This document shows positions 16,118 to 23,152 of a DNA stretch of 64,000 nucleotides, piece by piece; within the stretch, counting starts at the first letter, position 1; the number at the start of each line of letters is the position of its first letter. The position numbers were made by a program, and so were the translations under genes. The stretch lies in the sequence record PQ850594.1; one strand, 5' to 3'. Under the pieces are notes generated by a model. The model worked only from the letters and a program-made list of their open reading frames with translations. It had not been told where the DNA came from and searched no databases. This stretch comes from Escherichia phage AnnaHegner_Bas87.

Positions 16118-16420
16118 CTAGATTAAATCATAATACTTAATAATATCGGAGAGCTTAAACTCTCGAATGTCATTCTTGTCGTTGTCCCAAGCGGTCATTA
16201 TCCAACAAGGTTTGCCCCCATTATGATAGCGGGAAGAAGCAACTGAGGTTCGTAAAGGAATAACGGAGCGGTCTGCAACTTCACCTCTCCAATTACGATA
16301 GCTAAAGCGAAGAACTTGTTTCGTAGATACTTGATCATGTGTGTTTTCCTTGTTCATAGATTCAAAGACTTCTCTTTCTTCAGGAGTCTCTAGATTTTTT
16401 AAATTCACGTCTTGCATCAT
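16118..16420 (-). CDS. hypothetical protein
   Basis: AAGGAAG RBS before ATGATG start; no recognisable motif. Confidence 0.4.
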   Translation of the reverse strand: MMQDVNLKNLETPEEREVFESMNKENTHDQVSTKQVLRFSYRNWRGEVADRSVIPLRTSVASSRYHNGGKPCWIMTAWDNDKNDIREFKLSDIIKYYDLI

Positions 16421-16784
16421 TCTCTTCCTTAGTTTTTATCTTATGGCAAGGCTCTTTGCATAAGACTTGAAAACCATCTTTCTCAACTAAAGCCCTCTCG
16501 ATGATTTCATCCCAAGTAGCTTCATGGTCCACTGGAACAATAGGCTCTACATGGTCTACTGCTACGTCTTTAAGAGGAGAATCATTACCACACATGGCGC
16601 ATTTGTAATGCATTGCCAGTTTGCCAGTTTTAGGGTTGATTTTACGTTCTGTCTGAGCCTCTTTGAGAGAATCAAACATAGGTTTCCATTTCCTAGTCAG
16701 AGAACGAATCCCTGACTTAATGAAGGAGTTATAACGTGCTTCAGTCCACTGACCAGAGCATCTTGTCTTCTCAGCTTTCGCCAT
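16380..16784 (-). CDS. HNH endonuclease
   Basis: CAMCG...VAVDHVEPIVPVDHE...LCKEPCHKIK, HNH with Cys pairs. Confidence 0.6.
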   Translation of the reverse strand: MAKAEKTRCSGQWTEARYNSFIKSGIRSLTRKWKPMFDSLKEAQTERKINPKTGKLAMHYKCAMCGNDSPLKDVAVDHVEPIVPVDHEATWDEIIERALVEKDGFQVLCKEPCHKIKTKEENDARREFKKSRDS

Positions 16785-18383: not shown

Positions 18384-19033
18384 TATTGAATCATCCCTTG
18401 AAGATCTTCTTTATCAAAGTGCTTCTCTACTACCGCTTCATACAGATCACGATTCTCTGAATAACGACGATAGAAGGTTCCGTGTGAAATTCCCAACTCT
18501 TGCTGGATGTGATCATGTGGGATGCCGAGAAAGAGCATTGAGAACATGCTTGCCATCTTACGGTTTTCCATAATGTCACTCAGGTCTTGGAAGAAGAAAA
18601 AGATTCTAGATTCCAAGAACGGGTCTCCAGTAGAATCATGCTTATCCATCGCAATCTCTAAAGGACTTTCCCATGAATTCATCTCAGGAGGTCTAAACAT
18701 ATCAGCCTCTGGAATAGAGTAGATACGTCGGTCTCCAACTGTCTGACGATTAGAACGAATCGACCAGATGATATTCTTGACACGATAAGTCATGTGCTCA
18801 ATATCTTTTTCATCAGTGAGCAGAAGTTCTTCTTGCTTTGCAAATACAAAACGCCAAGCGTTCAGTAACACTTCCTGAGCAACATCCTCTGCCTCGTGAT
18901 AATCTTTAATGTCATACATAAAATACTTATGCACAACTTTCCAGTTCTCTCGATAAAATTCATCGAAGGTTGGATAATATTTAATAGGAATGCCATGAAT
19001 ACGATAGCGTGTGGGTGTTGTCTTCTTCTTCAT
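18383..19033 (-). CDS. phage-encoded sigma-70-family sigma factor
   Basis: region 2-like [15 protein letters not shown] and C-terminal region 4-like HTH; ATGA overlap with downstream gene. Confidence 0.7.
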
Positions 19034-19057
19034 AAGTCGTCCTTAACTTACTTTATA

Positions 19058-19282
19058 TTAAACTACACAGAACAAATATATTGCTGTGTCAGGACAAGGG
19101 ATGTGATCACTAGGTTGCCTAATTCTATCCCATTCATCATCTTCTGCTATATAATAAGCCCAATAAGACTCACCATCGTTGATGAAGAATTTGAATGTTC
19201 GTCCCCAAATCTGATTATTATGTTCCCATACTGCATGAAATTGAGTAACACCTTCTGGTATTGTAAGTTCCGCTCTGATCAT
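19058..19282 (-). CDS. hypothetical protein
   Basis: ORF only. Confidence 0.35.
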   Translation of the reverse strand: MIRAELTIPEGVTQFHAVWEHNNQIWGRTFKFFINDGESYWAYYIAEDDEWDRIRQPSDHIPCPDTAIYLFCVV

Positions 19283-19578
19283 TGTATTCCTCTCTCCTTG
19301 AGAGCTTTAAGTAAACCATTATGGTTAGCAGCACAGGTTGTATAATTATCCTGATACCACTCAAGTGTTGTTGCAAATGCCACTCCCTGTGCACTCTGAA
19401 GTAAAGGGAGGTCTACATCACATTCAGCTTTTAGGTTTGTTGGTAAGGGCATTAGCTGCCTGCTGTTGTCGCTCATTGAACAAGCCATCAAACTAGAAGC
19501 GAGCAAAATCACCAAACAACTCTTTTGCTTTTTCTTTGTAAGCATTTTCTGCACCTTCTTGAGTGCTATGATAACCAA
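19279..19578 (-). CDS. o-spanin (outer-membrane lipoprotein, Rz1-like)
   Basis: signal peptide KKKQKSCLVILLASSLMAC with lipobox Cys, Pro-rich periplasmic part; true start probably internal Met. Confidence 0.5.
   Translation of the reverse strand: MVIIALKKVQKMLTKKKQKSCLVILLASSLMACSMSDNSRQLMPLPTNLKAECDVDLPLLQSAQGVAFATTLEWYQDNYTTCAANHNGLLKALKERGIQ
19448..19486 (-). repeat. duplicated spanin-junction segment, copy 2
   Basis: encodes GLFNERQQQAANAL in the HNH frame after its stop; near-synonymous copy of the i-spanin 3' end. Confidence 0.7.
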
Positions 19579-19843
19579 GCCAAATTACTTTGTTTTGATA
19601 TCCGATACGAGCACTCCATTTATTAATATCTGACCTGTATCCTACACCTTTTATTCCAGTTAAAGAGTTCTTTTGAACTATTTTATTGGCATTGTTGAGG
19701 ACAGGTGTTGCTTTTCTTAGATTGCTCCAAGAGTTATTAGACTTATCTAAATCTTTATGGTCTATTTGGAAATCGGGAATTTCTCCAGTTTTTATATACC
19801 AAGCAACTCGGTGAGCTTTGTATGTCTTTCTCTGAAAATTCAA
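19493..19843 (-). CDS. HNH homing endonuclease (HNH_3-type with AP2-like DNA-binding domain)
   Basis: HRVAW...IDHKDLDKSNN...NLR and AP2-like KWSARIGY...LGYH..EGAENAY; homologous N-terminal region extends upstream of the track start. Confidence 0.7.
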   Translation of the reverse strand: MNFQRKTYKAHRVAWYIKTGEIPDFQIDHKDLDKSNNSWSNLRKATPVLNNANKIVQKNSLTGIKGVGYRSDINKWSARIGYQNKVIWLGYHSTQEGAENAYKEKAKELFGDFARF

Positions 19844-19974
19844 TGTTACATAACCAGCTTTTGTTTTACACCCTGCAACCTTTCCTGCGAGTCTTGAGTT
19901 CCACTGAGCGCTCTTATCTTTAGAATGTTTCCAGTACAGAAGACCGGAAGCCTCGTCATAAGACAGATATTTAA

Positions 19975-20316
19975 TTAATTCTTTAATTTCAGTGCCTCCG
20001 CTGCTTGTTGTTGTCGTTCATTGAAAAGTCCTACATACTCATCGCTAGCACACACATTGTAAAAAACTGGCTTAGTCTTTTCATAATGCATCTCTTTGTA
20101 AATAGTTTCCGTGTTCTTCTTCCAGTTTGATAAACCAGTTAGAACTTTCTGAGCCACTTCATCAGCAGCCCTAGCCCTCTCAATCTCTATCTCGTGCTGC
20201 TTCTTCTCTTGGTCAAGAGTGTTGCTATCATTTCGATATTGCTCAAACTTCATTCCACCAAAGAAAATAAGAGCTGTGAAAATAAGAAAGCCTATATTGT
20301 TTTGAAGCTTTTCCAT
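19975..20316 (-). CDS. i-spanin (Rz-like)
   Basis: start moved to ATG 20316 (GGAG RBS; track start is GTG 20340 inside terminator hairpin); N-terminal TM, coiled coil. Confidence 0.5.
   Translation of the reverse strand: MEKLQNNIGFLIFTALIFFGGMKFEQYRNDSNTLDQEKKQHEIEIERARAADEVAQKVLTGLSNWKKNTETIYKEMHYEKTKPVFYNVCASDEYVGLFNERQQQAAEALKLKN
19996..20031 (-). repeat. duplicated spanin-junction segment, copy 1
   Basis: encodes GLFNERQQQAAEAL as the true i-spanin C-terminus. Confidence 0.7.
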
Positions 20317-20329
20317 TTTAACTCCAACG

Positions 20330-20351
20330 AAAAAAGCCACCCAAAGGTGGC
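20330..20351 (-). terminator. rho-independent terminator (minus strand)
   Basis: GCCACC-CAAA-GGTGGC hairpin followed on the minus strand by a T-run. Confidence 0.6.
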
Positions 20352-20374
20352 TAAGCTATTACAAGGAGAGATTC

Positions 20375-21115
20375 TTAGAATGGAGAGTCATCCTCTTCAA
20401 AGGTTGATTGCGGCTCTTCATTAATGGTAGGGATGCTTGGAGTAGCATCTTTCTGTTCAGTGTCAGAAGCTTTAGTAACTTCACGACCAGCCAGAGGGAT
20501 ATTCTTAGCATCGTTAGCTTGAGTCAAGAGGCTACGTTGGAATGGGAAGATTGCTTGATAAGCAGCTAAGTTAGCGTCAGTCTCAGCATACGGTTCGAAG
20601 AAGATCAACTCACTACGAGGAGCACCTACCGCGTCACGATATTTAGTCGGGATTGGAGTGATGCTTTTAATGGAGTTTTTCTTCTCACCAGCTTTGTTTA
20701 CATAGGAATTAACCAGAATGTTAACAGGCTGACCTAACAGCATATCTTTAAACCAACCCAAATCACCTTTCAGTGCTTGAACACTTGGGTCGATCATTTT
20801 AATCAGATTTAGAATACCAGAGTTCTTAGCTCGTGGATTTACATCGAAAGATTTAAACTGGCAAGCAGGACGAGGGTCCAGAGGTTTGCCTTCATTATCA
20901 GTCCCTGTTGCATCTACGCCAATCAGCTCAAAAGCTAAGTCCATACGGAAAGCTGGATTCTTAGGAGTAACTGCTTTGGTTTTAGGGTCAATCCAAGGGT
21001 CACGATTGTGAACACCCAAACCTACAACACGAACAATACGTGCTTCGTACTCACCATCAGGGATTACATCGTAGTTGGATTTACGGGATACAGACAGTTC
21101 AGGGATCATAGACAT
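20375..21115 (-). CDS. putative single-stranded DNA-binding protein
   Basis: acidic C-terminal tail ending EEDDSPF resembles SSB/gp2.5 tails; adjacent to replication genes; weak inference. Confidence 0.4.
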   Translation of the reverse strand: MSMIPELSVSRKSNYDVIPDGEYEARIVRVVGLGVHNRDPWIDPKTKAVTPKNPAFRMDLAFELIGVDATGTDNEGKPLDPRPACQFKSFDVNPRAKNSGILNLIKMIDPSVQALKGDLGWFKDMLLGQPVNILVNSYVNKAGEKKNSIKSITPIPTKYRDAVGAPRSELIFFEPYAETDANLAAYQAIFPFQRSLLTQANDAKNIPLAGREVTKASDTEQKDATPSIPTINEEPQSTFEEDDSPF

Positions 21116-22416: not shown

Positions 22417-22640
22417 TATAGCAACTCCCTTTGTTTACTGTTGATAACAGTCATCGCTGTTACTGGGTTGTTTGTTCCAAGATATTCTAGAACAGAGACA
22501 CCCTTAGTCGGTTTATCAGCCTCTATGTAATTCTTAACCTTGCCACCAAGAACCGCTAGAGAAGCCTGAGCTTCTGCTTCATCAGTATGAACTCGGTCAA
22601 CTGTTTTCTTTCCAATCGTGTAAGTGTGAACGTAAATCAT
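22416..22640 (-). CDS. hypothetical small protein
   Basis: ORF only. Confidence 0.35.
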   Translation of the reverse strand: MIYVHTYTIGKKTVDRVHTDEAEAQASLAVLGGKVKNYIEADKPTKGVSVLEYLGTNNPVTAMTVINSKQRELL

Positions 22641-22843
22641 TTAACTTCCTCAATATTGACTAATTCAAAACTTCCTATTTCTTCAAGTTTGATAATCTCT
22701 TTAACCTTCTCAACAGCTTTAATAGGGTTTTCTTCTTCTACAACTTTACACCCTGACACTTCAAGACTTCCTGTTCCACGAAGGTATAAATTTAACTTAT
22801 AAACTACTTTGTAGTATTTCATCGTGCTCCCAATTTCTTTCAT
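22637..22843 (-). CDS. hypothetical small protein
   Basis: ORF only. Confidence 0.35.
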   Translation of the reverse strand: MKEIGSTMKYYKVVYKLNLYLRGTGSLEVSGCKVVEEENPIKAVEKVKEIIKLEEIGSFELVNIEEVK

Positions 22844-22976
22844 AATATCCAGAGTTGTAGTTTAGGGCGCATTTCTCGGCCTCTTCTATGTCGTCTGTGT
22901 TTAGGATATTAACCCAACCACCAACTTCATCAAAACCCTCTTCTTCTTCATTAAACCATACGCTGTATTTCTTCAT
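22797..22976 (-). CDS. small acidic protein (paralog of 22062-22247)
   Basis: start moved to internal Met (MKKYSVW) giving ATGA overlap with the upstream small ORF. Confidence 0.4.
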   Translation of the reverse strand: MKKYSVWFNEEEEGFDEVGGWVNILNTDDIEEAEKCALNYNSGYYERNWEHDEILQSSL

Positions 22977-23152
22977 CTTGATAAGACTCTCCCCCAATCC
23001 TTGATGTAACAGCGACCGTCAACCCACTTGGTCTCTGATTTAAACTCTTTTGAGATTCGAGTCTCGCAATCTTCTTTACTGTAATCTCCAAGAGCATCCA
23101 TCGCCCAAAGAAACAGAGCAATTACAATAGACCAGATTAGAAACTTCTTCAT
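22973..23152 (-). CDS. small secreted protein (sub-60 aa, not in ORF track)
   Basis: ATG overlapping the stop of the HAD gene; MKKFLIWSIVIALFLWAMDALG signal-like N-terminus; 59 aa. Confidence 0.35.
   Translation of the reverse strand: MKKFLIWSIVIALFLWAMDALGDYSKEDCETRISKEFKSETKWVDGRCYIKDWGRVLSR

Follow-up and report, generated by a model that had tools for sequence, protein, structure and literature searches.

An HNH-AP2 homing-endonuclease gene within the duplicated spanin overlap of a Kuravirus phage, with probable replacement ends for both spanin genes

The window analyzed in this study is the whole 64,000-nucleotide (nt) stretch of DNA from Escherichia phage AnnaHegner_Bas87 (sequence record PQ850594.1), a phiEco32-like podovirus (Kuravirus/Gordonclarkvirinae) coliphage. 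We examined a locus of this window in which an HNH-AP2 homing-endonuclease gene lies between the genes for the two spanins, the Rz-like i-spanin and the Rz1-like lipoprotein o-spanin. All genes of the locus are on the minus strand and are described in its 5' to 3' direction. Over the 1.8 kb surrounding the locus, identity is 95% to Escherichia phage OliverMaurmann_Bas86 (Bas86) and about 91% to phages SU7 and PAS59. An initial annotation of the window had described an HNH gene inside the i-spanin/o-spanin overlap, and all parts of this arrangement were found in place on the minus strand. That is, the HNH gene is associated with a spanin overlap of which one segment is duplicated. The features of the locus are listed in Table 1.

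Table 1. Features of the spanin/HNH locus, including open reading frames (ORFs); lengths of proteins are in amino acids (aa).
Feature	Position	Strand	Remarks
i-spanin gene	19975..20316	-	113 aa, N-terminal transmembrane segment; PHROG 1152 'Rz-like spanin', E=1.3e-33
Fossil of ancestral o-spanin start	20031..20084	-	+1-frame ORF MKRLSQFFTMCVLAMSM and stop, 17 codons, inside the i-spanin gene
Copy 1, cassette-borne i-spanin tail	19975..20034	-	VGLFNERQQQAAEALKLKN and stop; o-spanin frame broken by stops
Insert relative to HNH-less relatives	19488..20032	-	545 nt; alignment columns 316-860
GGAGG, Shine-Dalgarno-like motif	19995..19999	-	7 nt before ATT 19987; within i-spanin tail codons A-E-A
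HNH-AP2 homing-endonuclease ORF	19493..19987	-	164 codons from ATT 19987 (candidate start); Pfam HNH_3, E=6.5e-14, and AP2
Overlap of HNH C-terminus (..AYKEKAKELFGDFARF and stop) with o-spanin	19493..19545	-	53 nt; +1 frame gives the first 17 signal-peptide residues
o-spanin gene	19279..19545	-	88 aa; signal peptide MLTKKKQKSCLVILLASSLMA, lipobox Cys22 (codon 19482..19480)
Copy 2, resident overlap sequence	19424..19489	-	now o-spanin lipobox and mature N-terminus only

The i-spanin carries the hydrophobic segment NIGFLIFTALIFFGGM at its N-terminus and ends in ...VGLFNERQQQAAEALKLKN. It is orthologous to the i-spanins of relatives that lack the HNH gene as far as ...DEYV. Thus the body of the gene is resident sequence, and its final 20 codons form the first copy of the duplicated segment (copy 1). 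The o-spanin belongs to PHROG 2425, the same family as the o-spanin of phage 4E8, and is homologous to the o-spanins of the phiEco32 group. Its lipobox region, VILLASSLMAC, fits the PROSITE-type pattern, lysines are present in its n-region, and the protein is a predicted lipoprotein. The phiEco32 and ECBP2 homologues of the i-spanin are listed as spanins by Kongari 2018 (PMC6139136).

In order to clarify the state of the locus before the insertion, we compared it with nine HNH-less relatives: 4E8, VTCCBPA_211 and LAMP from the phage collection, five IMG/VR genomes (ECBP2-, phiEco32-, KBNP1711- and NJ01-like, plus one other contig), and one distant contig. The o-spanin gene starts within the i-spanin gene, in the +1 frame, in all nine, as expected from the ancestral overlapped pair that had been proposed. 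The overlap is 116 nt long in the eight close relatives, and the same arrangement is seen in the distant contig, the i-spanin of which is only 51% identical. The native overlap sequence is GATGAGTATGTCAGCTTGTTCAATGAGCG, and the native signal peptide is of the MKRLSQFFTMCVLAMSMSAC type (MRKLNQFFIMSALVMSMSAC in the phiEco32 lineage).

Compared with 4E8, the window has 545 extra nt (20032..19488) straight after ...GATGAGTATGT. In the alignment with the HNH-less relatives, this insert sits between the o-spanin signal peptide and the lipobox cysteine, with an uncertainty of about 20 nt at the right border. Since the flanks are repeated, neither border can be placed more closely than about 20 nt. 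The inserted unit, which we call the cassette, contains a diverged i-spanin tail (20034..19975), the HNH-AP2 ORF (19987..19493), and most of a new o-spanin signal peptide.

The two copies of the overlap segment were then compared. Local alignment of the i-spanin tail with the sequence following the HNH gene gave a score of 38, whereas 2000 shuffles gave a mean of 14.9 (standard deviation 2.2) and a maximum of 26. Chance similarity was therefore rejected, on this test and on the homology of both copies to the single native copy. The repeat, which had been placed at 19448-19486, is present there but is longer: copy 1 runs from 20034 to 19975 and copy 2 from 19489 to 19424, and each copy extends as far as a stop of its own in the i-spanin frame. 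The first 15 codons of the two copies agree at 32/45 nt. Their codon differences are 8 synonymous and 2 non-synonymous in the i-spanin frame, where the differences had indeed been described as mostly synonymous, and 0 and 9 in the o-spanin frame.

A comparison of copy 1 with the native tail of 4E8 (31/45 nt identical) gave the same picture, with 8 synonymous and 2 non-synonymous codon differences in the i-spanin frame, and 0 synonymous and 9 non-synonymous ones, together with stops, in the o-spanin frame. Since the changes are mostly synonymous in the former frame and all non-synonymous, with stops, in the latter, copy 1 evolves as i-spanin only; its +1 frame is a decayed o-spanin N-terminus. 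Copy 2 is identical to 4E8 at 62/66 nt (94%). Its old i-spanin frame reads DGLFNERQQQAANALTNKPKS followed by a stop (from 19486, GLFNERQQQAANAL(TNKPKS) and stop), and its +1 frame, that of the o-spanin, reads (M)ACSMSDNSRQ; MACSMSDNSRQLMPL.... Among 50,697 phage records, copy 1 is confined to carriers of the HNH gene, and no HNH-less genome with a copy-1 tail (a 'scar' allele) was found. Because copy 2 is nearly identical to the HNH-less allele and copy 1 occurs only in carriers, copy 1 is the foreign part that travels with the endonuclease, and copy 2 the resident one. This is the reverse of the initial annotation, in which the second, downstream copy was thought to have come from a related allele.

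The i-spanin gene also contains, in the +1 frame, a short ORF without a lipobox cysteine, which stops at a TAG that the insertion created at the junction (three-frame translation). Its intact counterpart in 4E8 is MKRLSQFFTMCVLAMSMSAC.... This fossil of a signal-peptide ORF, together with the overlapped state of the outgroups, indicates that the overlapped pair came first and was then split by the insertion of the HNH gene.

Both spanin genes of the window have complete reading frames, and the duplication had been held to keep them intact. However, the duplication is insufficient for the o-spanin, which needed a replacement of its signal peptide. What had been missed is that this replacement comes mostly from the 3' end of the HNH gene read in the +1 frame, so that the o-spanin start, ATG 19545, lies inside the HNH gene. 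The +1 frame of the last 17 HNH codons reads MLTKKKQKSCLVILLAS, which is followed by SLMAC and the mature o-spanin. The same frame sharing is seen in a second, diverged cassette type (type B, described below; the window carries type A), and the new signal peptide obeys the lipobox rule in both types. Within type A, there are no synonymous HNH-frame changes in the shared region, while the synonymous divergence (dS) is about 0.5 elsewhere in the gene, as dual coding predicts. The HNH ORF ends in ...AYKEKAKELFGDFARF, stopping 2 residues past FGDFA, and the AP2 domains of the two aligned HNH-AP2 proteins of phage Shivani likewise close with the conserved FGxFA. Because FGDFA is the conserved AP2-end motif of the family, the HNH frame is the older one in the shared 53 nt. 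The +1 frame of this conserved end encodes the n- and h-regions, and we therefore think that the n-region and most of the h-region of the signal peptide were probably overprinted on older HNH codons.

Beyond its TAG, the HNH frame of either cassette type becomes the former i-spanin frame of copy 2. For type B, a hand alignment of the 31 nt that surround the HNH stop gave 24/31 identities with the native i-spanin sequence. It is plausible that the final HNH codons and stop derive from former i-spanin codons, with copy 2 reaching leftward to GCTAGC, but this could not be told apart from microhomology or chance.

The Pfam HNH_3 match of the endonuclease exceeds the curated cut-off, PHROG 99 aligns to residues 2-163, and tblastn matches to phage HNH genes span residues 2-164. 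The catalytic motif, IDH..SNN..NLR..N, is invariant in five cassette sequences, and the 164-codon frame is intact in all carriers. The full-length frame opens after TGA 20020..20018 and contains no ATG, GTG or TTG before TTG 19843; a start at this TTG gives a product of 116 aa. The 48 codons upstream of the TTG align with the N-termini of the family, including those of the Shivani HNH-AP2 genes, and their ratio of non-synonymous to synonymous substitution (dN/dS) is 0.18-0.23 against SU7 and PAS59, compared with 0.09-0.11 for the HNH core. The low ratio and this alignment argue that the 48 codons are translated. Thus the full-length frame begins before any canonical start codon and extends into the i-spanin tail, a point of detail on which the initial annotation is corrected.

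The best candidate for the start is ATT 19987, and counted from there the i-spanin tail and the HNH ORF overlap by 13 nt. The GGAGG motif ahead of it is conserved in Bas86, SU7 and PAS59 and is probably the ribosome-binding site of the HNH gene. In type B cassettes, a GTG or ATG start is found twelve codons further in. A programmed -1 frameshift from the i-spanin into the HNH frame was also considered, and on inspection no slippery site of the form X XXY YYZ was seen in the tail.

Cassettes of types A and B, with 66% identity between their HNH proteins, occupy the same site in 8 genomes. The carriers are 6 phages from 95 matching records, the window and one metagenome contig; the other genomes are collinear without the HNH gene. 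Type A is present in the window, Bas86, SU7 and PAS59, with the i-spanin tail VGLFNERQQQAAEALKLKN and the o-spanin signal peptide MLTKKKQKSCLVILLASSLMAC. Type B is present in E20-1, EK010, KM01 and the metagenome contig MAVA01000022.1, with the tail VSLFNQRQEEAKRVLKSKE and the signal peptide (V/M)HIKKKLLSCTGILLAFSLSAC; two residues of the KM01 tail are unlike those of the other type B cassettes. Each type occurs in more than one genus or backbone, type B in both phiEco32-like and ECBP2-like phages. A metagenome scan yielded one extra type B carrier, the remaining loci being 32-46% identical, with their genomic context not inspected, and no further carriers were found in IMG/VR.

The sequences on either side of the cassette differ in origin among the type B carriers. 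In KM01 and MAVA01000022.1, both flanks are phiEco32-type spanin sequences. In E20-1 and EK010, the i-spanin body shows 90% identity to the 4E8/ECBP2 lineage as against 80% to the phiEco32 lineage, whereas the mature o-spanin is closer to the phiEco32 lineage (96-99%) than to 4E8/ECBP2 (76-77%). The comparison thus places the switch between lineages at the cassette. E20-1 and EK010 have a chimeric spanin pair, which raises the question of whether the interaction of i- and o-spanin tolerates such mixing. The window and Bas86 match at every position from 20043 to 19476, and extending the comparison to 19392 adds one mismatch; that is, a nearly identical tract of about 650 nt lies between flanks that diverge by about 10%.

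Among HNH-less phages, conservation within the locus is highest in the overlap, with a mean pairwise identity of 92% and 81% invariant columns, compared with 82-83% identity and 58-63% invariant columns in the rest of the locus. No copy of the native 29-mer junction was found in the window at up to 3 mismatches. The distribution, the breakpoints, the nearly identical tract and the target are consistent with intronless homing accompanied by co-conversion, by an enzyme that is presumably active.

The divergence of the HNH gene itself was also observed. Between the window and SU7 or PAS59, its dS is about 0.5-0.6, apparently far above the nucleotide divergence of about 8-9% in the flanking spanin genes, and a hypervariable patch lies at HNH codons ~41-56. 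This high dS relative to the flanks, together with the patch, suggests that the cassette has a history separate from that of the host genomes.

We consider it likely that the HNH-AP2 gene is a free-standing homing gene that lies within the 116-nt dual-coding overlap and is tolerated there because the cassette that carries it repairs both of the genes it interrupts. On the 5' side, the cassette supplies a diverged version of the last ~19 i-spanin codons and the stop, and the probable ribosome-binding site (GGAGG) and first codons of the HNH gene are embedded in this tail copy. At the other end, the +1 frame of the last 17 HNH codons provides a start codon, an n-region rich in lysine and a hydrophobic core, and these new n- and h-regions join the resident lipobox and cysteine to form a new o-spanin signal peptide. 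The overlapped spanin pair thereby becomes a separated pair. As for its spread, by analogy with the T-even seg and mob genes, the enzyme may cut HNH-less genomes in or near the conserved overlap during mixed infection, and repair from an HNH-carrying genome may then copy the cassette with some flanking sequence. Each piece of the cassette is under purifying selection, and its presence among related genomes is sporadic, with breakpoints at the cassette. The initial annotation is thus partly supported: its reading was largely right, and the corrections concern which copy is foreign, how the o-spanin is rescued and where the HNH gene begins.

Several points weigh against this explanation. The full-length HNH gene of type A has no canonical start (only ATT or CTG, or TTG for the 116-aa product), and it could be poorly expressed or N-terminally truncated. 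By sequence, no solved structural homologue of the HNH protein was found at E<=0.01. The window and Bas86 share other tracts of 100% identity, which reflect the general mosaicism of kuraviruses, and ordinary recombination could yield some of the signatures of mobility. Because copy 2 keeps most of the native sequence, a carrier would be without immunity if the recognition site lay wholly downstream of the insertion point. The borders of the cassette remain uncertain by about 20 nt per side. Finally, we infer the endonuclease activity with its homing, the cleavage site and the initiation at ATT, and the rebuilt spanin pair is presumed to be functional.

In a second explanation, the cassette is real but the endonuclease is inactive as a homing enzyme, being in decay or poorly translated, and the cassette spreads by ordinary homologous recombination among co-infecting kuraviruses. 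The lack of a canonical full-length start in type A, for which annotators chose differing truncated starts, agrees with it, as do the other long identical tracts of the window and Bas86. However, the 164-codon frame is intact in all carriers with a dN/dS of 0.09-0.23, the N-terminal 48 codons included, the residues of the HNH motif (DH..NN..N) are invariant, and a GGAGG stands 7 nt ahead of the ATT. In addition, the lineage switch of E20-1/EK010 and the tract identical to Bas86 coincide with the cassette. We therefore think that an inactive passenger is unlikely.

The GenBank record of Bas86 suggests another possibility, since its 'Rz-like spanin' coding sequence (CDS) is a two-piece join across the HNH gene. 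In this case the HNH gene would reside in a self-splicing group I intron of the i-spanin gene, and splicing would restore the overlapped pair in RNA. Excision of 20033..19491 (543 nt) does restore an in-frame ...DEYVGLFNE... and a lipobox M-L-A-C, but this follows from the repeat. Between 18900 and 20700, there was no match to an Rfam intron or other relevant family at E<=10. The HNH frame takes 495 nt of the 545-nt insert, leaving about 50 nt and no space for a ribozyme core. Moreover, copy 1 is open and its changes are biased to synonymous ones, so that the i-spanin reaches its own stop through a homologous, maintained tail without splicing, and the replacement signal peptide with its own start, which is conserved in both types, would be needless if the RNA were spliced. 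An intron is thus very improbable. Least credible of all is the reverse direction, with separated spanins and the HNH gene as the ancestral state: although recombination between copies 1 and 2 would remove the HNH gene and yield an overlapped pair, and Kongari 2018 (PMC6139136) left the direction open for the T5 family, all HNH-less relatives, including the contig of 51% identity, are overlapped with a shared native signal peptide, the carriers are a scattered minority (6 phages from 95 matching records, the window and one metagenome contig), they retain fossils of an overlapped ancestor in the stop-interrupted old signal-peptide ORF and the decayed o-spanin frame of copy 1, and no HNH-less locus with a copy-1 type tail was found among the 50,697 phage records.

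The insertion of a homing gene into the spanin overlap can be compared with a case in T5-like phages. Kongari 2018 (PMC6139136) reported an overlap of 70 bp between the T5 spanins, whereas in Shivani and phiR201 a putative GIY-YIG endonuclease gene lies in a gap of about 700 bp that separates the two genes. The authors pointed out that a lipoylation signal has to remain after an event of this kind, and did not decide on its direction. As in the present case, an endonuclease gene stands where the spanins of relatives overlap, the architecture is a separated one, and the i-spanin of Shivani differs from that of T5 only at the extreme C-terminus and the o-spanin only in the signal sequence (PMC6139136). 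Our alignment of Shivani (KP143763, 24382-25827) with T5 showed a 718-nt insert with a 12-nt imperfect flanking direct repeat (CTTGGAGTACTG / CTTGGAATACTG). Both spanin genes of Shivani extend into the endonuclease ORF: the tail of the i-spanin gene shares 20 nt with its start, and the first four o-spanin codons lie in the 13 nt shared with its 3' end.

The present case differs from Shivani in that the enzyme is HNH-AP2 and not GIY-YIG, and in that the spanin and phage families are unrelated. The duplicated segment is ~60 nt here and ~12 nt in Shivani. The o-spanin of Shivani gained 4 new codons (MHKI for MFNW), whereas here 16-21 signal-peptide residues are new and 17 are encoded inside the endonuclease gene. 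The direction is resolved here by the fossil ORF, two diverged cassette types are present, and the paper of Kongari describes neither the duplication nor the frame sharing. Thus, this kind of event is already published for T5-like phages, and the present locus is a cleaner example with a clear direction and a rescue mechanism.

Homing, co-conversion and homing-endonuclease ORFs that overlap upstream genes were reviewed by Edgell, Gibb and Belfort 2010 (PMC2988022), and free-standing endonuclease genes typically overlap the gene before them slightly and have weak signals for initiation (PMC2988022). Like the T-even seg and mob genes (PMC2988022), the present HNH gene is associated with neither intron nor intein, is sporadic among close relatives, and shows co-conversion-like tracts and a conserved target sequence. 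Its overlap of 13 nt from the ATT is comparable to the 11-24 bp by which segC, segF, mobA and mobC overlap their upstream genes (PMC2988022). On the other hand, the seg and mob genes of T4 are mostly intergenic (PMC2988022), and the present gene lies inside two overlapping genes. Where mobE entered nrdA of Aeh1 and mobA entered gene 39/60, one protein was split into two polypeptides (PMC2988022); here, two overlapping genes were separated, and each was given an end supplied by the cassette.

The HNH protein resembles the PHROG 99 HNH-AP2 family (T5 hegI/hegJ, phiEB49 gp51) in its domain order, that is, an N-terminal region, HNH_3 and an AP2 domain ending in FGxFA, with 41-43% identity to family members over the whole length. 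It differs from the family in that its last codons enter the former i-spanin-frame sequence and that type A has no canonical start. CPT_Shivani38 and CPT_Shivani49 run ~7 and ~17 residues beyond FGxFA, compared with 2 residues here. The origin of the signal peptide resembles overprinting, since its n- and h-regions come from the +1 frame of older, conserved HNH codons. It is unlike usual overprinting in that only a short targeting peptide of low information is new, grafted on a pre-existing mature domain. In the searchable library, we found no literature that combines 'overprinting' with 'homing endonuclease' and no description of the Kuravirus spanin/HNH locus, the SU7 and BASEL papers included.

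We are evenly divided on whether the locus represents a third way, beside introns and inteins, for a homing gene to reside inside coding DNA. In such a way, the gene would invade a dual-coding overlap with substitute gene ends in alternative frames of its own 5' and 3' ends, and the signal peptide would be mostly new by overprinting on the AP2 domain. Overlaps may even be preferred sites, as mutation to escape cleavage would be hard there.

For one family, the question of direction left open by Kongari 2018 is settled as overlapped to separated by endonuclease insertion. The locus also suggests that a selfish gene can enter doubly coding DNA and spare both genes by bringing replacement ends, and it offers a small, datable case of a signal peptide that probably arose by overprinting. 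Bas86 and its relatives can infect E. coli K-12 in which the O-antigen has been restored (PMC11990801), so that homing, the cleavage site and spanin function are directly testable.

Inconsistent annotations of the locus (the joined spanin of Bas86, truncated HNH starts and o-spanins called from internal methionines) can be corrected. In Bas86 (PQ850622.1, 33217-34109), the spanin CDS is joined across the HNH gene as if across an intron, and several records give an o-spanin of only 57 aa that begins at an internal methionine and lacks the signal peptide. The joined CDS and these short o-spanins look like annotation errors.

A promoter and terminator scan of 18900-20700 gave counts not above those of shuffled sequences, and the only clear feature was a terminator-like hairpin upstream of the i-spanin. 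This hairpin with its T-run (AGCCACCTTTGGGTGGCTTTTTT) lies at window positions 20335-20352 on the minus strand, directly upstream of the i-spanin start, and is an annotated terminator in phage 4E8.

The slot just downstream of the o-spanin gene (window 19058-19282) varies in content. The window, 4E8, Bas86 and SU7 have a 74-aa ORF there, E20-1 and EK010 one of 112 aa, and KM01 and MAVA01000022.1 a macro-domain (Appr-1-p processing) ORF, whereas the slot is empty in LAMP and VTCCBPA_211. A second, unrelated HNH-type ORF is present at 16380-16784 on the minus strand (134 aa, ...VDHVEPIV...); it corresponds to Bas86_0024, 'HNH endonuclease', and occurs in both genomes. Finally, about 320 nt of the window at 22640-23000 are missing from Bas86, a small indel between very close genomes, and this segment holds two minus-strand ORFs of 68 aa (22637..22843) and 66 aa (22797..22997).

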